A stretch of DNA of 64,000 bases from Bacteroidia bacterium (GCA_037969175.1 JBBKWX010000055.1:65758-129757), one strand, 5' to 3'; shown: positions 864 through 17,600, counted from the first letter of the stretch. Program-made: numbers and translations. Notes: a model not told the origin generated them from the sequence alone.

Positions 864-3800
864 ATGCTTCTATTCAGGACCCCTGATCCTCTTTCCTTAA
901 GAGTCCTGTTGATTGTAACGTTTTCCTTCATTTTTGTTAACGTGAAGGCTCAACTTACAGTTAATAGTACACCCACACCCACACAATTGGTTCAAAACAA
1001 TTTATTGGGTTCCGGAGTAAGTGTTTCCAATATTCAATATACCGGCCCACCTTTATCTAAAGGTACATTTGCAAATGGTGGTCTTACAAATCTTGGCATT
1101 AATTCAGGAGTAATATTAAGTTCAGGTAATGCCAGTGGTGCCATTGGCCCTAACAATACAGGAAGTACAAGTACTAATTTTGGAAGCCCTGGTGATGCTT
1201 TTTTAAATACACTTGTTTCACCCAACCCAACTTTTGATGCTTCAATTCTTGAATTTGATTTTGCTGTTGCATCAGATTCAATTCGTTTCAAATATGTTTT
1301 TGGATCTGAAGAATATAATGAGTGGGTTAATTTTACATATAATGATGTATTCGGATTTTTCTTAAGTGGTCCGGGTATACCGGGCGTAAGGAATCTTGCA
1401 ACTATTCCGGGTGCTGGAATACCTGTATCCATCAATAATGTGAATAATGGGGTTTCACCTCCGGGTATTCCTGCTACCGGTCCATGCACAAATTGTGCTT
1501 ATTACCGGGATAACACAGCTGGTACTTCTTTGCAATATGATGGTTTAACTACAGTATTGACAGCAAAGTCTAATGTTACTGTTTGCGAAACGTATCATAT
1601 CCGACTCGCTATTGCTGATGCGGGTGATCCTAATCTTGATTCAGGTGTTTTTCTTGAATCAAACTCTTTCACAAGTTTTGGGAATATCAATATTTCATCA
1701 AGCGGTGGTACACAGTCGGGTGATACGATCTTCTTTTGTCCGGGAACACCAATAACATTGTGTGCCGTGCCTTCAGTGAATTATAGCTGGTCAACAGGTG
1801 CAACTACACAATGTATAACTGTTACCACACCCGGCTACTATTCCTGCTTCACTTCAAAGGGGAGTTGTTTTGCATGGTCTAACCAGTATATCCTGGTTCC
1901 TGCTGCTGCACCGGCGATTACCGTAACTGCAAGTGGCCCTACTCAACTTTGTCCGGGTTCAAATGTTACCCTTACTGCTAATTCTGCCATTTCTCCGGTT
2001 ACCTGGTCTAATGGTGCAACAACCCAAAGCATTACTGTTAATTCAGCCGGAACATATACAGCTTCAGTTACTACTGGTGGAACATGCGCTGTTTCAAGTG
2101 CAAGTATTTCAGTAACGATGGTAAGCAACGTTGCAACTGTCACTGCTTCCGGTCCAACTACCATCTGCCCTACAAACACAGTTACACTTACTGCCAATTC
2201 AGGGAGTTCTTATCTGTGGTCAAATGGCGCTACAACTCAAAGTATTGTTGTAGGAACAACCGGAAATTATTCAGTCACAGTATATCAACCGGGTGGTTGT
2301 AGTGCTGTTTCTGCACCGACAAATGTCACCATTTCTATGCCTGTGGCTACAGTCACGGTAACTGGAAATCCTGTTATCTGTCCGGGTGCATCCGTTGTAC
2401 TTCAAGCAAATGCAGGTTCAGCCTGGTTATGGTCAAATGGAGCTACAACTCAAAATATTAATGTTACTACCCCGGGTTCATATTATGTTCAGGTTACAAA
2501 TGCTTTCAATTGTCTTACATCTTCCAATAGTGTTAGCGTTACACCGAGTTTTCCAACAGCGACTATTTCAGTCAGCGGAAATCAAACTCTGTGTCCGGGT
2601 GATAATGTAACACTGACGGCAAATTCAGGTAGTGCATATTTATGGAATAATGGAGCAACAACACAAAGTATAGTTGTTTCAACAGCCGGTAATTTTAATG
2701 TCATTGTTACAAATACAGATCTATGTAATGCAACATCAACAGGCATTCCTGTAAACATGAGCAACCCTATCGCAAGTGCGACAGCAGGTGGAAACACTAC
2801 ATTATGTCCGGGACAAAATGTAACGCTCAATGCAAATTCAGGCTCTTCCTGGCTTTGGTCCAATGGCTCTACAACACAATCTATAACTGTTGGTAGCGGA
2901 GGAACGTATTCTGTTAGCGTCATGAATGCTGATGGCTGTTCTGCAAATTCAAATCTGATCCCTGTCGTAAATAGTATCCCTACGGCTGCTGTCACTGCAT
3001 CAGGTCCCGTAGATCTCTGCCCCGGAACAAATGTGACACTTAATGCTAATGCTGGCCAAAGCTACCTTTGGAGTAATGGCTCTACCTCATCAAGTATCAA
3101 CGTTAGTTCGCCCGGAAGTTATTCAGTTCAGGTAACAAATACAGATAATTGTACTGCAGCTTCAACTGCTATAAATGTTACTTCACTGCTTGCAGTAGCT
3201 TCGATCACACCATCTGGATCTACACTTTTGTGTCCTGGAAATAATGTAAATCTCAATGCAAGTTCCGGAAGCGCATGGCTGTGGTCGAACGGTGCTACAA
3301 CGCAGACTATTTCAGTGAATCAGGCAGGTAACTATAGTGTCACGATCATTAACTCGAATGGATGTACAGAAGTTTCTGCACCAATGGCTGTTAGCTTGTC
3401 TAATCCTTCGGCAACAGCTACTCCGGCAGGAAACACAATGTTATGTCCGGGACAAAATGTTGCTCTCAACGCAAATTCAGGATCTTCCTGGCTTTGGTCA
3501 AATGGGTCTACAACGCAATCTATAAATGTGGGAAGTGGAGGAACGTATTCTGTCAGTGTTACAAATTCTGATGGCTGTACTGCAATTTCCAATCTGATCG
3601 TAGTTTCTGAGAGTAATCCTTTAGCTAATATCACTGCTTCAGGACCATTAGATCTATGCCCTGGCGAAAACGTAACGCTTACAGCAAACCCAGGCCAGAG
3701 CTATCTCTGGAGTGATGGATCTACATCTTCTACTATTACAGTTTCAAGTTCCGGAGTGTATTCTGTACAAGTGACAAATACGGATAATTGTGTTGCTGTT

Positions 3801-5453
3801 TCAAGCAATACAAATGTAAATACGCTGAATGCTGTTGCAACAATTACGGCAATGGGACCCACACAATTATGTCCGGGCGGAAATGTTGTTTTGGCTGCAA
3901 GTGCAGGTAGCGCATGGCTTTGGTCCAATGGAGAAACTACACAAAACATCACCGTTACACAATCAGGAAACTATAGTGTGAATGTTGTGAATTCAAATTC
4001 ATGTGCAGCTCTCACGTTGCCTGTTTCAGTATCATTCTCAACGCCAACCGCAAGTGCAACAGCATTGAGTTCAACAGATATTTGCCCCGGATCCAGTGTT
4101 GGTTTGACCGCAAATAACGGATCAGCATGGCTTTGGAGTAATGGAGCTACTACTCAACAGATCCAGGTTACTACTTCCGGCAACTACTCCGTTCAGGTTA
4201 CTGATCCTACAGGATGCATAGCCAATTCTAATAGTATCCCGGTTCAGGTAATTACTCCGCTTGCAAATATCACTGTTCAGGGAAATACAGATCTTTGTCC
4301 CGGTCAGCAAGTAATATTGATTGCAAATACAGGATCTAATTATTTATGGTCGACAGGTGCAACAACACAACAGATCACTTTAACTCAAACCGGCAGCTAC
4401 AGTGTTCAGGTTATAAATTCGATTGGTTGTACGGCACTTTCTGCACCGATCACAGTAAATGCGCTCACAGCTGATGCAACTGTTTTTGCAAATGGCCCGC
4501 TTAAGTTTTGTGAAGGTGGAGATGTGACTCTCAGTGCGAATCCGGGTTCTTCCTGGCATTGGTCAACGGGAGAAACTACACAAACTATCGTAGTTAATAC
4601 AAGTGGAACCTATACTGTAGAAGTTGTAAATACCAATGGATGTCAAAAACTTTCACAACCGCTTAATGTTACAGTAGCTCTTAATCCGGTAGTAGATTTT
4701 TATCCTGATTTGTTTGGTGGTTGCGCTCCTTTGAAAGTTAATTTTTCTGATCTATCAAGTACAACAAATAATGCATCCTATCTATGGAATTTTGGTGACG
4801 GACAAAGTTCGCAGGACAAAAATCCGACACATATTTATAGTGGAGTTGGATTGTATTCGGTACAACTAATTGTTACTTCTTCTGAAGGTTGTAAGAGCGA
4901 ACTGATCAAACCTGACTTGATAGATGTAGCAGATAGCCCTGTAGCATTCATGTCATTCTATCCAAATAACCCATTGCTATTCAGTTCAACAGTTCAGTTT
5001 TCTGATTCATCTGCAGGAGCTACTTCCCGGATCTGGCATTTTGGTGATGGTACCCGCTCAGACCTTAAAGATCCTTTGCATACCTATGATGAGCCGGGTC
5101 AATATACAATTCGTCTTGAAGTGGAAAATGGTTTTGGATGTTCGAATGAGATCATAAAAGATATTTATGTATTCCCGTTTTATCTTCCGAATGCATTTTC
5201 TCCTAATGGAGATGGTTACAACGATTCATTCTATGAAATGAATTTCAATATGAATGTTACATCTTTTGGAATGCACATTTATAACAGATGGGGGCAACTT
5301 ATTTTTGAATCAGACAGTCAAGCTAAGACTTGGGATGGAAAAGATCTGAATAAAATGGATTCACCGCAAGGAGTTTATATCGTTATTATGGATGTAAAAA
5401 CGCTACAGGGTACAGACCATCAATTTAAAACACAACTTACGCTGATCCGGTGA
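864..5453 (+). CDS. Giant secreted cell-surface protein (1529 aa). It has a signal peptide and an N-terminal choice-of-anchor-L-like domain. About 14 tandem ~80-aa Ig-like repeats follow, then 2 PKD-like domains and a T9SS type-B C-terminal domain (gliding-motility-associated CTD, CHU_C).
   Basis: The N-terminal signal peptide is 'LLIVTFSFIFVNVKAQ'. 'FGSEEYNEWVNFTYNDVFGFF' is typical of the choice-of-anchor L domain. The repeat unit is 'LCPGxNVTLTANxGSxYLWSNGATTQSIxVxxxGxYSVxVTNxxGCxxxS'. Two 'WNFGDG'/'WHFGDG' PKD cores are present. The C-terminus 'YLPNAFSPNGDGYNDSF...' is the hallmark of the TIGR04131 / CHU_C domain. Confidence 0.9.
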   Translation: MLLFRTPDPLSLRVLLIVTFSFIFVNVKAQLTVNSTPTPTQLVQNNLLGSGVSVSNIQYTGPPLSKGTFANGGLTNLGINSGVILSSGNASGAIGPNNTGSTSTNFGSPGDAFLNTLVSPNPTFDASILEFDFAVASDSIRFKYVFGSEEYNEWVNFTYNDVFGFFLSGPGIPGVRNLATIPGAGIPVSINNVNNGVSPPGIPATGPCTNCAYYRDNTAGTSLQYDGLTTVLTAKSNVTVCETYHIRLAIADAGDPNLDSGVFLESNSFTSFGNINISSSGGTQSGDTIFFCPGTPITLCAVPSVNYSWSTGATTQCITVTTPGYYSCFTSKGSCFAWSNQYILVPAAAPAITVTASGPTQLCPGSNVTLTANSAISPVTWSNGATTQSITVNSAGTYTASVTTGGTCAVSSASISVTMVSNVATVTASGPTTICPTNTVTLTANSGSSYLWSNGATTQSIVVGTTGNYSVTVYQPGGCSAVSAPTNVTISMPVATVTVTGNPVICPGASVVLQANAGSAWLWSNGATTQNINVTTPGSYYVQVTNAFNCLTSSNSVSVTPSFPTATISVSGNQTLCPGDNVTLTANSGSAYLWNNGATTQSIVVSTAGNFNVIVTNTDLCNATSTGIPVNMSNPIASATAGGNTTLCPGQNVTLNANSGSSWLWSNGSTTQSITVGSGGTYSVSVMNADGCSANSNLIPVVNSIPTAAVTASGPVDLCPGTNVTLNANAGQSYLWSNGSTSSSINVSSPGSYSVQVTNTDNCTAASTAINVTSLLAVASITPSGSTLLCPGNNVNLNASSGSAWLWSNGATTQTISVNQAGNYSVTIINSNGCTEVSAPMAVSLSNPSATATPAGNTMLCPGQNVALNANSGSSWLWSNGSTTQSINVGSGGTYSVSVTNSDGCTAISNLIVVSESNPLANITASGPLDLCPGENVTLTANPGQSYLWSDGSTSSTITVSSSGVYSVQVTNTDNCVAVSSNTNVNTLNAVATITAMGPTQLCPGGNVVLAASAGSAWLWSNGETTQNITVTQSGNYSVNVVNSNSCAALTLPVSVSFSTPTASATALSSTDICPGSSVGLTANNGSAWLWSNGATTQQIQVTTSGNYSVQVTDPTGCIANSNSIPVQVITPLANITVQGNTDLCPGQQVILIANTGSNYLWSTGATTQQITLTQTGSYSVQVINSIGCTALSAPITVNALTADATVFANGPLKFCEGGDVTLSANPGSSWHWSTGETTQTIVVNTSGTYTVEVVNTNGCQKLSQPLNVTVALNPVVDFYPDLFGGCAPLKVNFSDLSSTTNNASYLWNFGDGQSSQDKNPTHIYSGVGLYSVQLIVTSSEGCKSELIKPDLIDVADSPVAFMSFYPNNPLLFSSTVQFSDSSAGATSRIWHFGDGTRSDLKDPLHTYDEPGQYTIRLEVENGFGCSNEIIKDIYVFPFYLPNAFSPNGDGYNDSFYEMNFNMNVTSFGMHIYNRWGQLIFESDSQAKTWDGKDLNKMDSPQGVYIVIMDVKTLQGTDHQFKTQLTLIR
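1731..4690 (+). repeat. In-frame coding tandem repeat array inside the 864..5453 gene. About 14 units of ~240 bp each encode one Ig-like beta domain per unit.
   Basis: The CPG...LWSNGATTQ...GxYSV...C motif recurs periodically. Nucleotide-level similarity between units is obvious, for example 'ttatgtccgggacaaaatgt' at 2805 and again at 3441. Confidence 0.7.
2760..4037 (+). repeat. Two adjacent copies of a 639-bp block (2760..3398 and 3399..4037). Each block holds three Ig-like repeats, so this is a recent intragenic segmental duplication.
   Basis: The two 213-aa segments align end to end: 'SNPIASATAGGNTTLCPGQNVTLNANSGSSWLWSNGSTTQSITVGSGGTYSVSV...' and 'SNPSATATPAGNTMLCPGQNVALNANSGSSWLWSNGSTTQSINVGSGGTYSVSV...'. 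Nucleotide identity is roughly 85-90 percent. By contrast, other repeat pairs are similar only at the protein level. Confidence 0.7.
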
Positions 5454-5464
5454 TAAACTGATGA

Positions 5465-7558
5465 TCATCTTAGCAGTTTCATTGCTTCTGAGACTTCTTG
5501 TACGGGCAGTTTACAACTTCCTTTCTCACATACATAGATCATAGTTTTCCCATCCACAAATCTGTTTTCGAAAAGTGGAATAGTTGATTCTTTTTCGGAT
5601 GCCAGAATAAAATAATTTCCTTTTGCCTTTTGTCTTAATTCCTGTGCAATTGATTTTGCATTTTTTCCTGCAATAACAATTTCGTTAAATTCATAAACCT
5701 GATTTAACATTAGCATAGCATAATTTGAATATCCACTGGGGTATAGTTTCATCTTATGTTTTACAGAAAACAATAATTTATCAGAAATAGTTGAATATTG
5801 CTCTTTGCCTGTGATCAGTCCAAGTAGAAATAAACCCTTGCTCATGCTGCTATTTGATGCCGGAATTACATTGTCATGCATTTCCCTGCTTCTGGTTATC
5901 AATGCAGGATCAAGATCCGATGTAAAATAAAAAGTACCGGAGTTTGAATCATAAAAATGTTTGATTGTATACTCTGCCAGTTCTTCGGCTTTGCTAATCC
6001 AGCGATCATCATACGTAGCTTCGTAAAGTTTCAATAGCATTTCAATTGTGAAACTGTAATCTTCCAAATATGCATTGATCTTTGCTTTCCCTTCTTTATA
6101 ACTATGCAATAATCCTCCATCTTTTGACCTCATTTTACTTAGTATGAAATCAGCATTTCGAATTGCACTTTTCAAAAACCGATCTTCGGTAAATACTATG
6201 TATGCATCAGCGTAAGCCTTTGCCATCAAAGCATTCCAGGAACATAATTGTTTGTCATCCAGACCGGGTCGGATCCTGTTTTTTCTATTCTCGAAAAGTT
6301 TGTTGATCGATCTTTTTTTAATCTCTGAAAATGATTGATCCGTGATTTTATTTCTAGAGATAAAATCCTGATCATTCTCGATTCTGAGTAATATGTAATT
6401 TCCTTCCCAAGCACCATGTTTGTTGATGCTAAAATATTCTCCCATGAGTTTGGCATCTTCCCCTAAAACGCTTTCAAACTCTTCTTTGGTCCAAACATAA
6501 AATTTCCCTTCTTCGCCTTCGCTGTCGGCATCCAGTGCGGAATAAAATGCTCCTTCAGTGGATGTCATTTCTCTTTCAATAAAATCCAAAGTTTGATAAA
6601 CGATTTCTTTGTATAAAGGATTTGGATTCAATGCATAAGCAGCTGAATAAAGTGAGATCAGTTGAGCATTATCATACAGCATCTTTTCGAAGTGCGGAGC
6701 TTTCCATAGTCCATCAGTTGAATAACGTGCAAACCCTCCACCTATCTGATCGTAGATACCACCCAGCGCCATCTTTTCGAGAGTTAATTCTGTTTGTGCC
6801 CAGGCGCTTTTGTTCTTAGTGTTACGATAATATTCAAGGATAAATTCCCAGTTATTTGGAAGCGGGAATTTAGGAGCCCGGCTGAATCCTCCTTCTACCT
6901 TATCAAATGTTTTTTCAAATTCTGAATAGTACTCATCCAGTGTTGATCTTTCAAAATGGATATCTCCTTTTGCAACTTCTATGAGATCCATTCCTTTGAT
7001 TCCATCATGTAATTTTTCTGCGTATTCAATAAATTTTTGAGGTTGCGTTTTGTAGGATCTGTCCAACTCCTGCAGTATTTCCTGCCATTGCTTTTTTGGA
7101 TAATACGTTCCGCCAAATACGGGTCTGCCATCCGGTAAGGTGAAACAATTCAATGGCCAACCGCCTCTTCCTGTCATTAACTGTACTGCATTCATATAGA
7201 TCTGATCTACATCAGGTCGTTCTTCACGATCTACTTTGATACATATAAAATCACGATTCATGATCTCAGCAGTCTCTACATCTTCAAAGGATTCATGTTC
7301 CATTACATGGCACCAATGACAAGCGCTGTAACCTATACTTACAAGTACAAGTTTGTTTTCTGCTTTCGCTTTTTCAAATGCTTCATCGCCCCATGGATAC
7401 CAGTTTACCGGATTGTGTGCATGCTGCAATAAATACGGACTGCTTTCATGTATCAGCGAATTGGTAAATTTATGCTCACTTTGTTTCATAGTAGTTTTTC
7501 CATTATTGCAGGCCAGAGAGCTTACAAGTATTAAACATAAAAAACGAGTTGTCCTCAT
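5465..7558 (-). CDS. Thioredoxin-domain protein of the DUF255 / YyaL / SPATA20-like family. It has an N-terminal thioredoxin fold and a C-terminal six-hairpin glycosidase-like domain. It is a probable lipoprotein.
   Basis: '[20 protein letters not shown]' is the CxxC thioredoxin motif typical of DUF255. The protein is 697 aa. The N-terminus '[14 protein letters not shown]' is a lipoprotein signal. Confidence 0.8.
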
Positions 7559-7630
7559 TATCTTAAGTTAAGAAAAAATAGGACATCGATTTTGAAATAG
7601 ATTCGTTTCCGAAAACTTATACTCAACGTA

Positions 7631-8071
7631 TCACTTTGAAATTATGATAGAAGCAGTGGTTTCCGTATTAGAATAATTACCGGATCTGTCGATGAGATAA
7701 ACACTAAAAGTTGCAGCTTCAGAATTGCCGCCATTTGTAATTCCCATTGGAGGTAATTCAATATTCAATTTCCCTCTGATCGCAATATTTTCTCCGTTGG
7801 GAGTCAAGGTCTGAATTCTGAAAGCATGTACAATTCCTATTCTATTATCTTTTACCCAAAGGTTCTTTACATCAGGATCATTTGCCCCAAGATCTCCATT
7901 TCCATCCTCATAACTTAAGGTTAAGATCAATCCGTTTTCATATTCTTTTATCGAACTTTTATTTAAAAATACATTTGATATGACCGGTGTTTCAGAAATA
8001 AGTGGTTCATCCTTTTTACAAGATGAAAATAGAAAGATTACAGAGGCTAAAAACAAAGCGTATCTCATCAT
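7631..8071 (-). CDS. Small lipoprotein of 146 aa, predicted beta-rich, function unknown. It is the last gene of the DUF1501 operon.
   Basis: The signal is 'LFLASVIFLFSSCKKDE' (lipobox Cys followed by KKDE). Its start overlaps the stop of the upstream gene at 8071. No motif was recognised. Confidence 0.55.
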   Translation of the reverse strand: MMRYALFLASVIFLFSSCKKDEPLISETPVISNVFLNKSSIKEYENGLILTLSYEDGNGDLGANDPDVKNLWVKDNRIGIVHAFRIQTLTPNGENIAIRGKLNIELPPMGITNGGNSEAATFSVYLIDRSGNYSNTETTASIIISK

Positions 8072-8982
8072 TATTGTATCTTAAATGAATACACTGATTT
8101 TATATAAGACAATGTGCTGTTTGTCGGATAACCCGTCGCGACCGCATGTTGAGGGTCTCTGGCGAAATAACGCATATAGTAAATACCTCCGGTAGTTAGT
8201 GAAGAAGTATTGAATGTAACAAACCACAATTTTAGATTCCCTAATAGTACATAAGTTGCCTGATGTAAAACAGGGTTGCTGAAATCGTCGATCGAAGTAG
8301 AAAGTTTCAATTGATTTTGCAAAAGATTTTCAACTGCAGTACTATCATCTTGCAATACAAAATAGATGGTCATGTTTGTTGCTGATGGAACAATAAAAGG
8401 ATTGTATGCAATTCCATCAACACGGTTTGTATCAATACGAGTACCGTTTCCATCGAAAGCCGCATAAGCTACCAGTTCCGGTTCCTGATTCGGATAGCTT
8501 GGCAAAACAGATACATTTCCATTGATATCACGTGCTCCATTTGAGATCCAGTTGTTGATATGGCCTAGCTCAGTACTGTTCAGCGGAGTGCTGTATAATG
8601 GCATTCTACCGAGCACGGAATCTCCGGTTACCAACCGTTCATGCAACCACGAATTATTTACATCAAAAGGTATGACTCTGTAGTTGAATGTTCCCTGAGA
8701 ATTATTCTTAATTACTTTATGATAAACCAAAGAGGAATAGGTACTCTGAACACTTCTAAAATCAGGTTCGAAATTTCCGTCATGACAACCCGGATTATTG
8801 CATTTCACATTGAAGATATTTTTATGCAGTCCGGTAATACTGTTGGGGTCAGGCTCAACAGGAGGATTAGTTCCTCCACTATTTATCCCGTCATAAGGAT
8901 TTGGAGGATCGATAACATCACTTTTACATGCATAAAGGATCACGCACAACGAAACACACAGAAAGGTCAGATACTTTATCAT
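8071..8982 (-). CDS. Lipoprotein of 303 aa with an N-terminal planctomycete-cytochrome-C-like (PSCyt1-like) module
   Basis: The signal is 'LCVILYACKSD'. The segment 'FNVKCNNPGCHDGNFEP...SWLHERLVTGDSVLGRMPLYSTPLNSTELGHINNWISNGA' fits the PSCyt1 consensus 'PIL..C..CHg....LrL....peeSlLi.rv....erMPp...Ls.eei..l..WI.qGA'. The heme-type motif here is C-x4-CH rather than CxxCH. An ATGA overlap with the DUF1501 gene lies at 8979-8982. Confidence 0.55.
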   Translation of the reverse strand: MIKYLTFLCVSLCVILYACKSDVIDPPNPYDGINSGGTNPPVEPDPNSITGLHKNIFNVKCNNPGCHDGNFEPDFRSVQSTYSSLVYHKVIKNNSQGTFNYRVIPFDVNNSWLHERLVTGDSVLGRMPLYSTPLNSTELGHINNWISNGARDINGNVSVLPSYPNQEPELVAYAAFDGNGTRIDTNRVDGIAYNPFIVPSATNMTIYFVLQDDSTAVENLLQNQLKLSTSIDDFSNPVLHQATYVLLGNLKLWFVTFNTSSLTTGGIYYMRYFARDPQHAVATGYPTNSTLSYIKSVYSFKIQ

Positions 8983-10301
8983 ATAAAGGCTTGCGTTAAT
9001 GCTGCCCCGGGTAATAATCCTCCGGGTATCTCATTGTTAAATCCAAGTATGTATGAAATTGTAGGAACAATATCTATGCTTTGACCCAACACAGAATTGA
9101 ATACGGTGTTTTGTTTTACGATAGAAGGAGGTCCTACTACCATACAAAATATTTCTCTGGATGTTTGATCACTTGTATGATCCAGGGCGAACCTACCATT
9201 GGTATCAACAACTGTGTTTGCTTGCAGATTCCGACCATGCTCCGGAGCAACGATCAGAATAGTGTCGTTTGCCATTCCGGGAGTGTTTTGTATGGTCTGC
9301 CATAGATGTGCCACGGCCCAATCGGATTTGCGCAAATTGTTACAGTACCCGCTAAAATTTGAATGACAAATATCTACATCCTGCATATTTACAACAAGTA
9401 ATTCGGGCTTGAATTCCTTGATGATCTCTTCAGCAAAAAAGATATTGTACATATCATTATTCATTGCCGATCCTACACCCCAGGGATTATTGTATTGACC
9501 GGATACGGCTTTGTTGAACGCGCCACTGATGAAGTTTTGGAGAATTGTTTTTTCTATTTCAGGATTGATCACACCTGCATCACCACCGACGATCTGACCC
9601 ACAAAATTCTTATCTGTGAACTCTCTCATATTGGTTATCATAGCTTGTTCAGAACTGCTGAACTGCCTCATGTTGCCCAAGACATCATATCCTGCGGAAG
9701 AAATGAGTGATGTGGGTGCTATGAAATTTGCACCATATTGAGCTCCGTATCCGGGGTATTTGCTGAAGTTTAATGCCGGGTAGGGTCCTAATGAATTACT
9801 TACCCACCAGGAATTAAGTGTTGACATAGCCGGACTGTTATGCTTCCTGTAATATTCGAAGATTGTGGGATATGCAGGATGATCTCTAAGGTTCAGATCT
9901 GCACTTGTATATTGTCCGGTAACTGCAGTGGTATGGCCGTTGAAATGACCGGTTGGTCCGGCAGCATATCTGAATTCTTTAAACAGTGTACCGTAATTTT
10001 GTAAAGGCAACGGGAGTGGGGAAGGAGGTAATGCACTCATGGATCCGATAATATCGGGTGAGATCGCTTCTGTACCATTGAACATAGCACGCATTAAATT
10101 TCCTTCTGCCTTTTGCACGGACTCAAAATTCCGAACCCCGCCGGCAAAAAGACAAAATACCACATGATTAGCTTTTCGCGCTCCGGTGGCTGCAAACAAT
10201 CTTCCACTTGGCAAAATATAGGGCAGAGTCATCATGCCTGCCGTTGCCAGGCTAGCCTTACGTAGAAATTCTCTTCTTGCAATTGTTTTAGTGGTCGACA
10301 T
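8979..10301 (-). CDS. Tat-exported DUF1501 family protein (alkaline-phosphatase / sulfatase superfamily)
   Basis: The twin-arginine signal is 'TIARREFLRKASLATAGMM'. 'HVVFCLFAGGVRNF' matches the DUF1501 N-terminal 'lvvvflrGGlDg'. The C-terminal 'GRFALDHTSD...SIDIVPTISYILGF' matches 'GRDHw...hDlhATilhllGl'. It is 440 aa with ATGA overlaps at both ends. Confidence 0.85.
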   Translation of the reverse strand: MSTTKTIARREFLRKASLATAGMMTLPYILPSGRLFAATGARKANHVVFCLFAGGVRNFESVQKAEGNLMRAMFNGTEAISPDIIGSMSALPPSPLPLPLQNYGTLFKEFRYAAGPTGHFNGHTTAVTGQYTSADLNLRDHPAYPTIFEYYRKHNSPAMSTLNSWWVSNSLGPYPALNFSKYPGYGAQYGANFIAPTSLISSAGYDVLGNMRQFSSSEQAMITNMREFTDKNFVGQIVGGDAGVINPEIEKTILQNFISGAFNKAVSGQYNNPWGVGSAMNNDMYNIFFAEEIIKEFKPELLVVNMQDVDICHSNFSGYCNNLRKSDWAVAHLWQTIQNTPGMANDTILIVAPEHGRNLQANTVVDTNGRFALDHTSDQTSREIFCMVVGPPSIVKQNTVFNSVLGQSIDIVPTISYILGFNNEIPGGLLPGAALTQAFI

Positions 10302-10792
10302 CAGTAGTATCTATATTCATTACTGGTCATCATAGCATAATAGACCATAGCAGGATTTATCCCTGCATTTTTTTCTATCAGATCTTTTATATACCAGGCT
10401 TCAAATGCCTGCGCTTCTCTGTTAAAAAATTTGAGATAAGATTTAAGAATGAATGCATTAATATCAGATCTCATTTGAGCATCTGTAGGCAATTGCACTC
10501 CGGGTTTATTCAGGAAGTTCCGGATGATCATATCTTCAATTAATTTCCTGTCACCAAAACTTTGATATGCAAGATCAAGTTTGATCAATTCTGCTGAGGA
10601 GATTCCGGTGCCAAAAAGATCTGAATATGCGATCGAGATAAATTCTATTGTAGATTTTACGTTGTCTTTCCCGGATCCGGATTGACTTACTGTAACCGGG
10701 TTTAGCTCATAGATGTAGTCTTGTTCTTTTTTACAAGAACTGAAAAATATCAATAAGCTTATGATGAATATATATGAACTTTTTAATATCAT
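10301..10792 (-). CDS. Small lipoprotein of 163 aa with one DUF1549-like motif module
   Basis: The signal is 'ISLLIFFSSCKKEQD'. 'LKFFNREAQAFEAW...AMVYYAMMTSNEYRYY' resembles the DUF1549 segments 'RRvsLDLtGLpPtpeEv...LLaSprYGErw'. A 4-nt overlap with the upstream gene lies at 10789-10792. Confidence 0.55.
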   Translation of the reverse strand: MILKSSYIFIISLLIFFSSCKKEQDYIYELNPVTVSQSGSGKDNVKSTIEFISIAYSDLFGTGISSAELIKLDLAYQSFGDRKLIEDMIIRNFLNKPGVQLPTDAQMRSDINAFILKSYLKFFNREAQAFEAWYIKDLIEKNAGINPAMVYYAMMTSNEYRYY

Positions 10793-11667
10793 AGTCCTGC
10801 GTATTCATTACTGATCAAAATGGTTTTTTGCATTTGTGAGTAACTACCACTTTGCTTATACTTTGAAGTGAGATCACTCATCTCAACGGATGTAGGTTCG
10901 CGAAATAAAAACCGTTTATAGGATAGGCGAACCTGACCTTCGTAATAATCGTCGGAGTTAAAAAACAGATTAATCAGATCAATTTTACTTTTTCCAAATT
11001 GTAAAAATACGATGGCATTTTTTCCATCCACCATATCGATTGCGGATAGTAATTCTGATTGTGTTGGATATCTCAACAAGAAATGTTGCCATAATGAAAC
11101 AACAAAATTCAGACTCCCCATGTTGAGTTGATCATAGAAATTATTGTTAACACAACGCAAAAACATTTCTTTAATATTGATAGTTCCGTTTTGCAATTTG
11201 AAAGGTATTTCACGCATAAGCTCTAATCGATCTATTTCATCCTGAATTAGGTCGTAGAATAGGATATAAGCAGGATCTTGTAATAAAATGGAATAAAGAA
11301 AGATCTGCTGAGCGATCAGATTCGTATCCATACTATTTAGCAAGTCAGCACGGGCCAAGGTATATAAATTGTCTTTGTATGCAGGTTTCGAAATTATTCC
11401 TTCGATAAATGTTGCTCGGGTAGAACTGGAGAAGTTTGTATTTTTAAGATCGATCCTTGCCGTATTGAATTCGATGCTATCCGGTTCTCTTGCCAGCAGA
11501 CTTATATAACTCCGGATGATATATGTCTCAATTGTAGCATTTGAGATGGTAGGGTCAGCAGGTGCATCATTCCCCGGAACTGCAATAATATCATCTTTGC
11601 GGCAAGCACTAAATGCCGTCAACATCATAGCAAGTATAAATATATTTTGTGCTCTGAAAAACTGCAT
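10789..11667 (-). CDS. Lipoprotein of 292 aa containing three reiterated DUF1549-like motifs. It is the first gene of the operon.
   Basis: The signal is 'LAMMLTAFSACRKDD'. The motifs are 'YISLLAREPDSIEF...IISKPAYKDNLYTLARADLL', 'LWQHFLLRYPTQSELL' and 'FLFREPTSVEMSDL...ILISNEYAGL'. The C-terminal 'SNEY' motif is shared with the 163-aa neighbour. Confidence 0.55.
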   Translation of the reverse strand: MQFFRAQNIFILAMMLTAFSACRKDDIIAVPGNDAPADPTISNATIETYIIRSYISLLAREPDSIEFNTARIDLKNTNFSSSTRATFIEGIISKPAYKDNLYTLARADLLNSMDTNLIAQQIFLYSILLQDPAYILFYDLIQDEIDRLELMREIPFKLQNGTINIKEMFLRCVNNNFYDQLNMGSLNFVVSLWQHFLLRYPTQSELLSAIDMVDGKNAIVFLQFGKSKIDLINLFFNSDDYYEGQVRLSYKRFLFREPTSVEMSDLTSKYKQSGSYSQMQKTILISNEYAGL

Positions 11668-11944
11668 ATATCAAATATACAAATTGAATGGTATTTATAA
11701 CAATTGAATCCATGAAAAATTGTTTTGCGCCATTGATAGCAGAGAAAAGCCCACAGCCCACAAATTTTTTAGGCGAGGATTTACAGCGTATATCCTGACC
11801 CTGTCGAGCTTTACGAAGGCAGTGAGGCGCCCAAAATATTTTTATTCACCAATATATATGAATTACTAACTTTATGCGCTTGAATTAATTATTGACATCC
11901 GTTTAAGCCGGATACTATTTACCTGTGTTTGATATAGAAAATTA

Positions 11945-14661: not shown

Positions 14662-17600
14662 ATGAACCTATCCAGAAACGAACGCACGTTCATTTCCATG
14701 AAGGCTTTTACCCTGATTGGGTTGATGCTTTTGTGCATTCCTGTTTTTTCACAAGTACCCGCAAATAATTTGTGTTCAAATTCACAGGTGATCACTATCA
14801 GTCCCAGTGGAACAACATGTGTTTCAGGCACAAATTTAAATGCAACATCTGACGGTTTTTTTAATGCATGTAATGCACCTACCGGGGGTAATGAAGTATG
14901 GTATACATTTATAGCTACCGGAACAAATAATACAATTACTGTTAATCCTGCTGCCGGAGCCGGAGCTGCACAGTCATTAGTACTAACGATTAATTCAGGA
15001 AATTGCAGTACTCCGGCTTCACTGATATGCGATGCTGCTCCCGGTCCCGGAGGAAGTGCATCCGCTTCATGGGTATTTACTCAAGGAGTACAAGTGTGGT
15101 TCGAAGTAACAACGCTGGGTGCAGCGGGTAATTTTGATGTGTGCGTTACCTCAGTTACACCACCACCTAACCCGGGCGGTACTTGCCCTACAGCTACAAC
15201 TCTTTGTGACAAGAGTGATTTTACAGTGACCACCTTACCTGTAGGAACTTCTGGTTATATGACCGGTTGTTTTTCTAACTCACCACAGAATGACTCCTGG
15301 TTTCAATTTACGGTTGGAGTAACAGGTACTATCGAATGGACAGCCACTCCAAATGGACTAACAGAGTACGATTGGGCTTTATATGATATCTCAGCAGGAT
15401 GTCCGGGTACTCAGATAGCATGCAATTATTTTTACTCAAACTCATTGGGAGCTCCGTTTGGAATGTCTGCTGCATCTGTGGGTTGTATCTTGGATGATTT
15501 CTGCCCTTCATTGATAGTGACAGCCGGAAATACATATGTTTTACAGATCGATAATTTTGATGCGAATGGTGTTGGATTCGATTTCGTTTGGGGGGGTACA
15601 TTCAAGATCGCTCCTACTTCAAGTTTTTCGGTCAACACTCCTACAGGTTGTGGAGTTGTAAATACAGGATTTACAAATACCAGTGTGGGTGCAAGTTCCC
15701 AAACCTGGAATTTAGGAAATGGAAACACTTCAGCTGCAGTTAGTCCGGCTGTACAAAATTATCCTTCACCTGGGAATTATTTAGTGGCACTCACAGTTTC
15801 TTCTGCAACGGGTTGCACGCAAACCAGTACCAATGTTGTTACAGTAAAATCAATTCCTACATCTACATTCACAAATACACTATCGGTATGTGTAGGAGCG
15901 GCAGCGACCATAACTTATACAGGCACGGCATTGGCTGCTGCGACGTATACCTGGGCTTTTGCAGGGGGAACAATAATATCCGGTTCGGGACAAGGACCCT
16001 ACCAAGTAAGCTGGGCTACACCTGGTGTAAAGAACGTTTCGCTGCTAGTAACTGAAAACGGATGTGTTTCAGCTATAACAAATAACAATGTTACCGTAAA
16101 TGCGATTCCAACTTCTACATTTACTGCAAACGCAACAGCATGTGTTGGGCAAAACTATAATGTAAGCTATACTGGTACAGCATCTGCCGCAGCAACTTAT
16201 GCATGGAATTTTGGCGGTGCTGCTATCGTCTCCGGAAGCGGACAGGGGCCTTATGTATTGACTTGGCCTGCTGCCGGACCGCGTTCCATCACCTTGACAG
16301 TTACCGAAAATGCTTGCGTATCTGTACAAACTCAGGTAAATCTGACGGTAAATTCTGTACCCACATCTACATTTACTGCTACTCCGGCCTTATGTGTAGG
16401 TTCAAGCGCAACAGTAACATACACAGGTTCAGGAAGCGCTCTTGCTACATATAATTGGAATTTTAGTGGAGGAACGATCTCTTTGGGTTCAGGTCAAGGG
16501 CCTTATCAAATAAATTGGGCAAGTCCGGGCATCAAAAATTTAGGACTGACCGTTACGGAAAATGGATGTACTTCAGCTTCAACAGCCGTAAATGTGACAG
16601 TTCACCCCATCCCGACAAGTACATTCACTATTACACCTTCTGCCTGTGTTAATCAGGCTGTCGCTATTACGTATACAGGATCAGCAACTGCCGGAGCTGC
16701 TTTTACCTGGAACTTTGGAGGAGCCACTGTTATCAGTGGAACCGGACAAGGTCCCTATTCAATTAGCTGGCCTGTGTCCGGTACACCCAATGTTAGTTTG
16801 AGTGTGACCGAAAATGCCTGCGTTTCTCCGATAACTATTTTGCCTATCACCATTAACCCGATTCCAACAAGTACATTCACGATACCGGCCCAAAGTTGTG
16901 CAGGTGATACTGTTTCTTTGGTATACACCGGTACCGGTGGTGCTGGAGCAACATACAATTGGAGTTATGTTCCGGCAAGTTTTGTTAGTGGAGCAGGGCA
17001 AGGCCCAATTCAAATAAGTTATGCCGGTGCAGGTGCATTTTTACCTACTCTGACAGTGATCCAGAATGCATGTACTTCAGCAGTTTCAAATCAACCTATA
17101 ACAGTTTATCCAATTCCTTCATCGGCCTTTACGATCAATGCAGTCGCTTGCGAAGGTGATACACTTACCGTTACATACACAGGCTCTTCGCTACCCGGAG
17201 CAACCTATAACTGGAACTTTGGTTCGGCCACAGTAATTAGTGGAGCAGGGCAAGGCCCCTATTTGGTAAAATGGTTTGGCGCAGGTAACTACTCAGTCAG
17301 TTTGCAAGTCACGGAAAATAGTTGCTTATCACCGATAACCAGTTCTCCTATACTTGTAAAACCTGTACCCATTGCTTCTTTTTCTATGCCTATTGTAGCA
17401 TGTCAGGGAGATACAATTACTATCACATACACAGGGAATGCGACTGCTCTGGCAACATATAACTGGACTCTTGGTTCAGCGGTACTGGTTTCAGGAACAG
17501 GACAAGGGCCTATAAGGGTCAGTTGGAATTCAAGCGGGGTTCAAAATATCAGTCTGCAAGTCACTGAGAATGGTTGTTCCTCAATCAATCAATTACAAAG

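Follow-up and report, generated by a model that had tools for sequence, protein, structure and literature searches.

Five adjoining genes in the genome of a Bacteroidia bacterium probably encode a single envelope protein machine, which would be a distant and disassembled relative of the modules that combine a DUF1501 enzyme with a helical partner (DUF1800 or PSCyt2/PSD1) and a c-type cytochrome. The genes lie on the minus strand of the 64,000-nucleotide stretch of DNA analyzed here (GCA_037969175.1 JBBKWX010000055.1:65758-129757; hereafter the window), where they specify one Tat-type enzyme and four lipoproteins. Support for a joint function comes from the conservation of the arrangement, from the domain content of the products, and from distant loci in which the same parts are rearranged or fused.

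A conserved five-gene cassette

A sequence-only reading of this DNA had described five translationally coupled minus-strand genes. Direct reading bore out both their coordinates and their 1- or 4-nt overlaps (ATGA at 10789-92, TGATG with a 1-nt overlap at 10301, ATGA at 8979-82, and TAATG with a 1-nt overlap at 8071), and all peptide strings quoted in that reading were present in the translations. In the direction of transcription, the five ORFs encode proteins of 292, 163, 440, 303, and 146 amino acids (aa):

10789..11667, minus strand: 292-aa lipoprotein ORF, lipobox with Cys22 followed by R-K-D-D
10301..10792, minus strand: 163-aa lipoprotein ORF, Cys20 followed by K-K-E-Q
8979..10301, minus strand: 440-aa Tat-type enzyme ORF, alkaline phosphatase superfamily
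8071..8982, minus strand: 303-aa lipoprotein ORF, Cys19 followed by K-S-D-V
7631..8071, minus strand: 146-aa lipoprotein ORF, Cys18 followed by K-K-D-E

Conservation was evaluated across 85 fetched loci, each encoding a relative of the enzyme. By BLAST, the enzyme was detected in all 85, the 163-aa and 303-aa proteins in 82 each, the 146-aa protein in 79, and the 292-aa protein in 77, in the same order and on the same strand, and most of the misses were contig ends. Within 5 kb of one enzyme relative (L064), partner genes were absent. The shared order and strand far exceed chance expectation, and the genes are conserved as a unit, as had been proposed. Flanking genes were poorly kept, with an M20 peptidase in 24 of the 85 loci and a DsbH-like gene in 5, and every locus examined held a single copy of the cassette. 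Its range extends over ~80 to hundreds of uncultured Bacteroidota genomes, and neither Pfam nor NCBIfam holds a model for the enzyme, cytochrome-lipoprotein, or 146-aa lipoprotein families.

The cassette is not confined to Bacteroidota: a Myxococcales metagenome-assembled genome (MAG; L171, 69.5% GC) encodes more divergent orthologs of all five proteins (hhalign, 93–100%). Five orthologs are likewise present in a divergent Bacteroidota copy (L172). A rearranged version (L173) has the order 292-like, enzyme, 163-like, cytochrome, with no ortholog of the 146-aa protein among the genes tested, while that protein was matched at 93% in the Myxococcales cassette and at 99.9% in L172. In two further loci, L168 and L169, the 292-like and 163-like parts form one fused protein directly upstream of the enzyme relative. 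The genes thus travel together across phyla, even when their order is rearranged. Downstream of the enzyme relative in L168 lies a different, multihaem cytochrome without detectable homology to that of the cassette, i.e., a cytochrome partner recurs in a non-detectably homologous form.

The enzyme and its lipoprotein partners

The 440-aa protein is a Tat-exported enzyme of the alkaline phosphatase (AP) superfamily, in a branch related to DUF1501 but not covered by its Pfam model. The twin-arginine signal and the AP-superfamily fold were both present when tested, and the Tat assignment was upheld across 43 homologs, in all of which R9, R10, and F12 are invariant and 15 of which match the Pfam TAT_signal model. 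The main features of the enzyme are as follows:

10260..10280, minus strand: twin-arginine motif A-R-R-E-F-L-R-K, residues 8-14
9915..9959, minus strand: G-P-T-G-H-F-N-G-H-T-T-A-V-T-G, residues 115-129, probable nucleophile loop and helix
9177..9245, minus strand: P-E-H-G-R-N (353-358) and D-H (374-375), invariant alignment columns

By analogy with the NPP/PafA pattern, residues 115-129 probably form the loop and helix that carry the nucleophile in the AP fold, for which T117 and H119 are the candidates: T117, G118, H119, H123, T128, and G129 are invariant in the 43 homologs, and the structural model shows a strand at 104-111 followed by a helix at 119-128. Judging from the alignment, the P-E-H-G-R-N and D-H columns are probably metal-ligand motifs. 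The enzyme keeps the catalytic fold of the superfamily along with His/Asp/Glu metal-ligand motifs. A Gly-Gly stands at the end of β-strand 1 in place of the usual Asp, so that metal binding may involve an atypical or incomplete site.

This protein had been called an unmistakable DUF1501, a label that proved too strong. The window enzyme had no match to Pfam DUF1501 (PF07394; gathering threshold 27 bits) at E ≤ 1, weak matches were obtained for 7 of its 43 relatives (best E 0.01), and three outgroups (P0290, P0299, and P0331), the closest of full length, scored 26–28 bits, around the threshold of 27. Against canonical PSCyt-paired DUF1501 proteins, hhalign returned 27% (E 7e-4; reversed control 0.1%) over 37 columns only, spanning PEHGRN/EFGRQ. 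The signature motifs of DUF1501 can nonetheless be followed along the enzyme, from β1 with G-G rather than Asp, through E-[FH]-G-R, to GR..DH, in the same order as in the DUF1501 consensus (AGGVRN vs YGGPS, PEHGRN vs GEFGRQ, and GRyAlDH vs GTGRDHN).

The description that best fits the profile matches of the 292- and 163-aa lipoproteins is that of helical repeat proteins of the DUF4214 type. By motif, the former is all-helical with three DUF4214-type units (residues ~44-100, 185-240, and 243-292), and the latter has one clear unit (~112-163) and, by eye, one degenerate unit (~50-98). DUF4214 (PF13946) was matched at E ≤ 1 by 52 of 53 members of the 292-aa family and 44 of 55 members of the 163-aa family, with overlapping PBS_linker matches in 16/53 members. 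When members of the 292-aa family were checked singly, 7 of 10 lay above the DUF4214 gathering score of 23.2 bits; the window copies fell short of it, at 18.6 bits for the 292-aa protein and no match for the 163-aa protein. The two families align with each other (hhalign, 88.7%), and profile comparison identifies them as the N-terminal (292-aa) and C-terminal (163-aa) parts of a helical partner that other lineages encode as one chain: proteins encoded upstream of distant enzyme relatives show homology to the 292-aa family over ~210 columns (98.8% and 97.3%), and in the fused partners of L168 (95.4%) and L169 (91.5%) the ~120 residues at the C-terminus align with the 163-aa family.

Both proteins had also been linked to DUF1549 through the motif '[LF][LF]xR[EY]P[TD]xxE', which is indeed present in three copies in the 292-aa product and one in the 163-aa product. 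The link survives as a resemblance over one repeat unit and fails at Pfam thresholds, the two proteins being DUF4214-like. Neither window protein matched PSCyt2/DUF1549 (PF07583) or PSD1/DUF1553 (PF07587), nor did the 163-aa family match either model. In the 292-aa family, PSD1 was matched by 21 of 53 members (best 5e-5) and PSCyt2 by 2 of 53, all below threshold, and in members checked singly the PSD1 match covered ~25 residues at profile positions 215-242 of 244. Comparison of this family with PSCyt2 by hhalign gave 20.8% over 68 columns of the N-terminal unit, and 5–9% with PSD1 (reversed controls 0.1%). The Myxococcales ortholog passes the PSCyt2/DUF1549 threshold (31.4 vs 29.8 bits) through a match restricted to positions 19-76 of the 209 in the profile. 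Taken together, the DUF1549/DUF1553 similarity of the two proteins extends over ~25-70 residues, within one repeat unit only. DUF1800 (PF08811) was absent from the 24 Pfam families matched by the 163-aa set and from the best 25 of the 30 matched by the 292-aa set, and the fused partner in L168, aligned with the C-terminal half of the model, fell just short of its cut-off (25.5 vs 26.1 bits). The view that modules of one large protein have here been split apart is correct for the two helical parts, which are fused in distant relatives; no evidence was found that the cytochrome and the helical modules had ever been fused in this lineage.

The 303-aa lipoprotein consists of a PSCyt1-type class-I cytochrome c domain and an Ig-like β-sandwich (structural model, pLDDT 91), with the following features:

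8533-8850, minus strand: cytochrome c domain, residues ~45-150, from hhalign and a PDB profile search
8782..8802, minus strand: C-N-N-P-G-C-H (C61-H67), putative haem c attachment site, non-canonical C-x4-CH
8599..8604, minus strand: M127-P128, putative distal haem ligand, invariant and aligned with the invariant M-P of PSCyt1
8074-8490, minus strand: Ig-like β-sandwich, residues ~165-303, from Foldseek

The PSCyt1-like block claimed for this protein was supported by hhalign and not by Pfam. None of 48 family members matched Pfam PSCyt1 (PF07635) at E ≤ 10, the only Pfam matches being Cytochrome_CBB3 (2/48) and CTI (2/48), whereas hhalign aligned the N-terminal domain with the PSCyt1 of canonical PSCyt1-PSCyt2-PSD1 proteins (97.1%, E 5e-11, 86 columns; reversed template 0.2%) and with stand-alone PSCyt1 proteins (95.6%, E 1e-8). 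A profile search of the PDB returned c-type cytochromes only, with FoxE first and with cytochrome c6 and one marginal CopM as the other matches, and genuine PSCyt1 produced the same ranking, FoxE being top for both. C61, C66, and H67 are invariant in sets of 48 and 56 sequences, and C-N-N-P-G-C-H aligns with the PSCyt1 CxxCH given a 2-residue insertion. The spacing of the motif varies from C-x4-CH in the window to C-x6-CH in high-GC orthologs. We know of no precedent for a C-x6-CH haem motif, so the first Cys may serve another purpose; C-x4-CH is itself an accepted haem motif (PMC10734462). The C-terminal half of the protein matched Ig-like adhesin domains by Foldseek. For the 146-aa lipoprotein, our guess is a small β-rich domain; its family has a conserved acidic loop, Y-x-D-G-D-G-D-L-G-E-N, and lacks a firm counterpart in Pfam (Aida_C2 matched in 14/53, best 0.0015; DUF5126 in 13/53).

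Localization and proposed function

The arrangement that we consider likeliest is a periplasmic complex, anchored through its lipoproteins, in which the enzyme works together with a cytochrome. The enzyme would be folded and loaded with metal in the cytoplasm, exported by Tat, and docked in the periplasm on the membrane-anchored helical partner, possibly via its invariant N-terminal arm PYILPSGRLFAATGAR. Its substrate would be of the ester type, and a phospho-ester seems likelier than a sulfate ester because of the Thr/His loop and the lack of a formylglycine motif. The monohaem cytochrome lipoprotein may pass single electrons between this complex and the respiratory chain, either to complete an oxidative step or to set the redox state of the metal centre, and the Ig-like domain and 146-aa lipoprotein may serve assembly or substrate binding. 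AP-superfamily chemistry normally needs no electrons, which makes the role of the cytochrome conjectural; the recurrence of a cytochrome partner in L168 suggests that the function involves electron transfer.

A bolder reading, which we advance tentatively and consider doubtful, is that DUF1501-type enzymes, this branch included, are obligately redox-coupled AP-fold enzymes with a c-type cytochrome as catalytic electron partner, and that helical proteins of the DUF4214, DUF1549, DUF1553, and DUF1800 types make up one ancient family of docking partners. The cytochrome might then take part in oxidizing an ester or a reduced compound of phosphorus or sulfur, or else activate a redox-active metal centre. 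It is also unlikely that the cassette encodes an ordinary phosphate-scavenging phosphatase or phosphodiesterase of the PafA/NPP type, with lipoproteins acting as anchors or chaperones and a cytochrome-like domain that is structural or haem-less. The β1 Asp ligand of such enzymes is missing here, with G-G in its place as in DUF1501, and the C...CH and M-P of the cytochrome are invariant in 56 sequences and kept in Myxococcota. The recurring cytochrome partner argues against this reading as well, and four dedicated partners kept across phyla would be unusual for a simple phosphatase.

The inferred periplasmic complex also depends on where the lipoproteins reside, and all four had been thought possibly surface-exposed on account of a Cys followed by K-(K/S)-(D/E). 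This pattern holds for the 163-, 303-, and 146-aa proteins but not for the 292-aa protein, which reads C-R-K-D. The published Bacteroidota surface-lipoprotein export signal is Q-K-D-D-E or K-(D/E)2, with Lys at +3, and we searched for K-(D/E)2 or Q-A-(D/E)2 directly after the +1 Cys (PMC5080379). The minimal motif was found in the 292-aa (C-R-K-D-D) and 146-aa (C-K-K-D-E) proteins, with no K-(D/E)2 in the 303-aa (C-K-S-D-V) and 163-aa (C-K-K-E-Q) proteins, so that surface exposure, with the full signal in only two of the four, is no more than possible. Those two proteins, and the C-K-K-(D/E) with which all four families begin and which resembles the published signal (PMC5080379), would suit a surface-exposed, Sus-like nutrient-capture complex in which the four lipoproteins are flipped outward and the enzyme is separately periplasmic. 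We regard such a complex as quite improbable: strict K-(D/E)2 occurs in only 7/53 (292-aa), 3/55 (163-aa), 8/48 (303-aa), and 21/53 (146-aa) family members, a single K-D or K-E is a weak export signal in experiments (PMC5080379), and no SusC or SusD genes adjoin the cassette. The Myxococcales and L173 orthologs have lipoboxes and no such motif, and fusion and co-inheritance with the Tat enzyme argue that all parts share one compartment. Myxococcota are not known to use the Bacteroidota lipoprotein export pathway. Surface export of the 292- and 146-aa proteins, if real, would preclude contact with the periplasmic enzyme and would count against the joint complex.

Finally, although many top structural neighbours of the enzyme are S1 sulfatases and Verrucomicrobia PSCyt genes often lie near sulfatase genes (PMC5615132), a formylglycine-dependent sulfatase with partners that handle sulfated glycans is very improbable, given that the C/S-x-P-x-R formylglycine motif is absent from the 440-aa sequence on direct reading, Sulfatase Pfam matches reach only 7/43 family members (best 2e-4), and no glycoside hydrolase, SusCD, or maturase genes adjoin the cassette.

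Relation to known modules and significance

In the PVC superphylum, DUF1501 and PSCyt1/PSCyt2(DUF1549)/PSD1(DUF1553) modules have been described with no function reported (Kamneva et al. 2012, PMC3542564; He et al. 2017, PMC5615132). Like these modules, the cassette sets a Tat-signal AP-superfamily enzyme beside a helical partner and a PSCyt1-type cytochrome c domain, shares the enzyme motifs β1-GG, E-[FH]-G-R, and GR..DH as well as the short LxRxPTxxE...SPxY unit that occurs where DUF1549 begins and where DUF1553 ends, and includes extra β-sandwich or Ig modules. Unlike them, it comprises five separate genes, four of whose products are lipoproteins, and the helical partners precede the enzyme while the cytochrome comes after it. 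In addition, its enzyme is not captured by Pfam DUF1501 (hhalign, 27%), only a minor part of DUF1549 and DUF1553, domains of ~200-250 residues, is represented, and C-x4-CH replaces CxxCH as the haem motif. Each examined locus has one copy, whereas PVC genomes carry many paralogs of such modules (PMC3542564).

As in the cassette, DUF1800 + DUF1501 pairs (PF08811 / PF07394) have a helical partner gene immediately upstream of the Tat enzyme. We know of no cytochrome in these pairs. The DUF4214 (PF13946) or phycobilisome-linker-like helical repeats that best describe the 292- and 163-aa proteins in Pfam terms usually occur in large secreted proteins, and not in small enzyme-paired lipoproteins. 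Identity between the enzyme and solved PafA, PhoK, and NPP phosphatases/phosphodiesterases and S1 sulfatases is only 12–18%, and its family differs from them in the missing β-strand-1 Asp, the lack of a formylglycine motif, the invariant N-terminal arm, and the dedicated partner genes. FoxE (Rhodobacter ferrooxidans) and cytochrome c6 share with the cassette domain a class-I layout and a Met-Pro distal ligand, a likeness that is weak (E 0.026), and FoxE is dihaem and not a lipoprotein.

Few unexplained gene families in Planctomycetes and Verrucomicrobia are as large as those of the DUF1501/PSCyt/PSD modules, for which the literature offers no function (PMC3542564, PMC5615132). The cassette presents the same three ingredients, i.e., an AP-fold Tat enzyme, a helical partner, and a PSCyt1-type cytochrome, as small separate proteins; it marks out the minimal modules and links DUF4214, DUF1549, DUF1553, and DUF1800 via a common repeat unit and fused intermediates. 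Expression, co-folding, and assays should be far simpler with these proteins than with their planctomycete counterparts of 700-1100 residues. If the redox-coupled reading were true, it would add a new type of chemistry to the AP superfamily and provide a function for hundreds of PSCyt/DUF1501 genes in Planctomycetes and Verrucomicrobia, and the five-gene cassette would be the simplest form for reconstitution.

The five-gene cassette and its distribution

The sequence-only reading had described a translationally coupled operon, and its five ORFs were all found where it had placed them, at the following coordinates, together with every peptide motif quoted from them.

Genes of the cassette in the window, from ORF reading
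10789-11667, minus strand, 292-aa lipoprotein
10301-10792, minus strand, 163-aa lipoprotein
8979-10301, minus strand, 440-aa Tat-exported enzyme
8071-8982, minus strand, 303-aa lipoprotein
7631-8071, minus strand, 146-aa lipoprotein

Successive genes meet in order at ATGA, TGATG, ATGA, and TAATG junctions, i.e., overlaps of 4, 1, 4, and 1 nt, and the GC content of the operon is 38.6%, versus 38.3% for the window. A 277-nt gap without coding sequence lies 5′ of the operon, and scans for sigma-70-type promoters and intrinsic terminators returned no more matches than shuffled expectation. At 11672-11679 on the minus strand, TATATTTG fits the Bacteroidota −7 promoter consensus, TAnnTTTG, and only 4 nt separate its end from the start codon of the operon's first gene; were this element functional, the operon mRNA would be nearly leaderless. 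A 147-aa ORF antisense to the enzyme/cytochrome gene junction (8641-9084, plus strand) is very likely spurious. Elsewhere in the window, proteins of 1529 and 1752 aa (864-5453 and 14662-19920, both plus strand) are built of many ~75-residue repeats, e.g., '...LCPG..V.LTA..G..YLWSNGATTQ.I...', and by eye their C-terminal ends resemble the gliding-motility/T9SS CHU_C type.

Relatives of the enzyme numbered 1885 in a 90%-clustered protein database, the named ones all coming from Bacteroidota MAGs under the labels "hypothetical", "alkaline phosphatase family", or "Tat signal domain-containing". With each species represented by a single genome, a scan found an enzyme relative in 234 genomes, and the best 80 of these were all uncultured Bacteroidota. 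Across 85 fetched loci, cassette members occurred in the same order and strand for the enzyme in 85, the 163- and 303-aa proteins in 82 each, the 146-aa protein in 79, and the 292-aa protein in 77, with absences mostly at contig ends. Flanking genes are unconserved, an M20 peptidase being found at 24 of the 85 loci and a DsbH-like gene at 5; the cassette is a real, self-contained unit. In the window, this last gene (5465-7558, minus strand, 72 nt 3′ of the operon and on the same strand) encodes a 697-aa thioredoxin-domain protein with a lipobox-like N-terminus, whose equivalent at one comparison locus (L004) is labelled Thioredox_DsbH. Because it co-occurs so rarely, it probably does not belong to the cassette, though it could be co-transcribed with the operon here.

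The cytochrome lipoprotein and the enzyme

None of the 614 members of the 303-aa family carries a Pfam domain, and Pfam called PSCyt1 in 0 of 48 members. The invariant residues include C19 (lipobox), C61, C66, H67, and M127-P128, and the structural model (pLDDT 91) shows a four-helix N-domain followed by a beta-sandwich, with C-x4-CH closing helix 1 and Met-Pro preceding the last helix, the layout of a class-I cytochrome c. Foldseek matched the beta-sandwich to Ig-like adhesin domains, and against the PDB it returned Ig-like matches alone, all from the C-terminal domain, so the cytochrome domain was examined by sequence profiles. The comparison set comprised real PF07635 proteins, fetched using a PSCyt1 bait, and canonical PSCyt1-PSCyt2-PSD1 proteins; conclusions rest on the fetched proteins and none on the bait. 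By hhalign, for which E-values are pairwise and without database correction and reversed templates serve as controls, the 303-aa family matched PF07635 proteins at 95.6% and the canonical proteins at 97.1% (E 5e-11, 86 columns including the haem motif; reversed control 0.2%). Searched against the PDB, the cytochrome-domain profile matched almost exclusively c-type cytochromes, FoxE on top followed by cytochrome c6, a ranking identical to that of genuine PSCyt1. Since hhalign scores and PDB ranking agree in this way, the earlier assignment of the 303-aa protein to PSCyt1 was correct at the profile-profile level. In the alignment, an insertion of two residues converts CxxCH to C-x4-CH, an accepted haem motif (PMC10734462). 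High-GC orthologs carry C-x6-CH, namely CAGQPGLCH (L171, 6438-7370) and CASERGGCH (L173, 7889-8866). To our knowledge, no haem c site spaced in this way has been documented. The neighbourhood of a stand-alone PSCyt1 gene (L086) offered nothing informative.

An exhaustive profile search with the enzyme family recovered 870 cluster representatives at E<=1e-3, only 75 of them at E<=1e-30; the nearest full-length outgroups, about 390 aa long, reach 26-28 bits with the DUF1501 model (threshold 27), and remoter matches belong to the superfamily in general, several of them having T9SS tails. Compared by hhalign with 61 canonical PSCyt-paired DUF1501 proteins, the enzyme family reached only 27% over 37 columns, and phmmer found no PDB match for the enzyme. 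Enzyme and DUF1501 consensus share, co-linearly, a Gly-Gly after beta-strand 1, where the usual residue is an Asp ligand, as well as E-[FH]-G-R and G-R-(x)-D-H, three features that distinguish DUF1501 from NPP and sulfatases. From these sequence comparisons we place the enzyme beside DUF1501, as a probable sister branch, and not within the family. Invariant positions in the enzyme include R9 and R10 of the Tat motif, T117-G118-H119, H123, D310, H313, E354-H355, and D374-H375, among which T117, by analogy with NPP and PafA, may be the nucleophile; a formylglycine sulfatase is rejected because the sequence holds no C/S-x-P-x-R motif. PYILPSGRLFAATGAR (residues 26-42; window 10176-10226, minus strand), which lies after the Tat h-region and ahead of beta-strand 1, is almost invariant in 43 homologs, a conservation unusual for a signal-peptide region, and is poorly ordered and of low confidence in the structural model. 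This segment may be a mature N-terminal arm docking onto a partner.

Helical partners and outgroup loci

DUF4214 was matched by 52 of 53 members of the 292-aa family (7 of 10 checked individually pass threshold) and 44 of 55 members of the 163-aa family, and the two families have a repeat in common (hhalign 88.7%). Other Pfam matches in the 292-aa family were to PBS_linker (16/53), PSD1 (21/53), and PSCyt2 (2/53). The sequence-only reading had seen a DUF1549-like motif in both proteins; the motif is real, but its extent is one repeat unit, and homology over whole DUF1549 or DUF1553 domains was not supported. In individually checked 292-aa members, the sub-threshold PSD1 match aligns ~25 residues, over LGRxPTxxE, with the C-terminal end of the model, and hhalign scored the family at 20.8% with DUF1549, in its N-terminal unit, and at 5-9% with DUF1553 (controls 0.1%), with no match of the 163-aa family to the canonical domains. 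For the 146-aa family, Pfam offered no convincing match and none of the canonical PVC domains showed similarity to it, and NCBIfam gave no usable match for any of the five proteins.

Two loci of borderline-DUF1501 enzyme relatives, L169 (59% GC) and L168 (65% GC), carry directly upstream of the enzyme a gene whose product matches the 292-aa family in its first part (98.8% and 97.3%, ~210 columns) and the 163-aa family over the next ~120 residues (91.5% and 95.4%). Because both families match successive parts of one protein, the 292- and 163-aa lipoproteins of Bacteroidota are the split form of a single partner protein. These fused partners fall slightly under the Pfam thresholds for DUF1553, DUF1549, and DUF1800. 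In L168, the gene at 7197-10274, directly downstream of the enzyme, encodes a protein of 1026 aa in which multihaem motifs of the cytochrome c3/c7 type occur together with LVIVD (beta-propeller) repeats; an EF-hand protein gene comes next. The multihaem protein has no detectable homology to the cassette cytochrome (0.3%), so that the same pair of enzyme and partner is accompanied here by another kind of cytochrome.

A Myxococcales MAG (L171, 69.5% GC) keeps all five orthologs in order (93-100%), with a lipobox on every accessory protein; the 292-like protein of this MAG scores above the DUF1549 threshold over profile positions 19-76. The genes of L173 (65% GC) run 292-like, enzyme, 163-like, cytochrome, and two further loci, L172 and L170, carry divergent copies from Bacteroidota. 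In a Cytophagales MAG, an enzyme relative of 58% identity that is extended at its N-terminus (L064, 4869-6305) has no gene for any of the four partners within 5 kb; upstream of it, the opposite strand codes for another Tat-signal protein. A canonical planctomycete-type PSCyt1/PSCyt2/PSD1/DUF1501 locus (L087, 10001-14493) was called as six short genes, a fragmentation that probably reflects frameshift errors in a metagenome assembled from long reads, not a natural split.

Localisation and relation to known systems

All four accessory families begin with C-K-K-(D/E); the sequence-only reading had taken a K-(K/S)-(D/E) pattern after the Cys of the window proteins for a possible surface-export signal. 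In the published form of the signal, K-(D/E)2, the Lys stands at +3, and a single K-D or K-E was weak experimentally (PMC5080379). Two of the four window lipoproteins, the 292-aa (C-R-K-D-D) and 146-aa (C-K-K-D-E) proteins, do fit it, but the strict motif is a minority in each family and absent from the L171 and L173 orthologs. A periplasm-facing complex agrees better with export by Tat, with haem attachment in the periplasm, and with the evidence from fusion, although some components may lie at the surface.

The nearest known systems are the DUF1501 plus PSCyt1/PSCyt2/PSD1 modules of PVC bacteria and the DUF1800/DUF1501 pairs, and function is known for neither (PMC3542564, PMC5615132, PMC12981691). 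No description of the five-gene cassette was found in the literature on DUF1501, DUF1553, DUF4214, DUF1800, and PSCyt. From folds, motifs, homologies, co-inheritance, fusion, and rearrangement, we infer a lipoprotein-anchored periplasmic complex in which an alkaline-phosphatase-fold enzyme would be partnered with a monohaem cytochrome. The main alternative is an ordinary phosphatase or phosphodiesterase, for which the other proteins would be accessory anchors. For the enzyme-cytochrome complex, a cytochrome partner recurs in a form without detectable homology, which suggests that electron transfer is important for what the cassette does.
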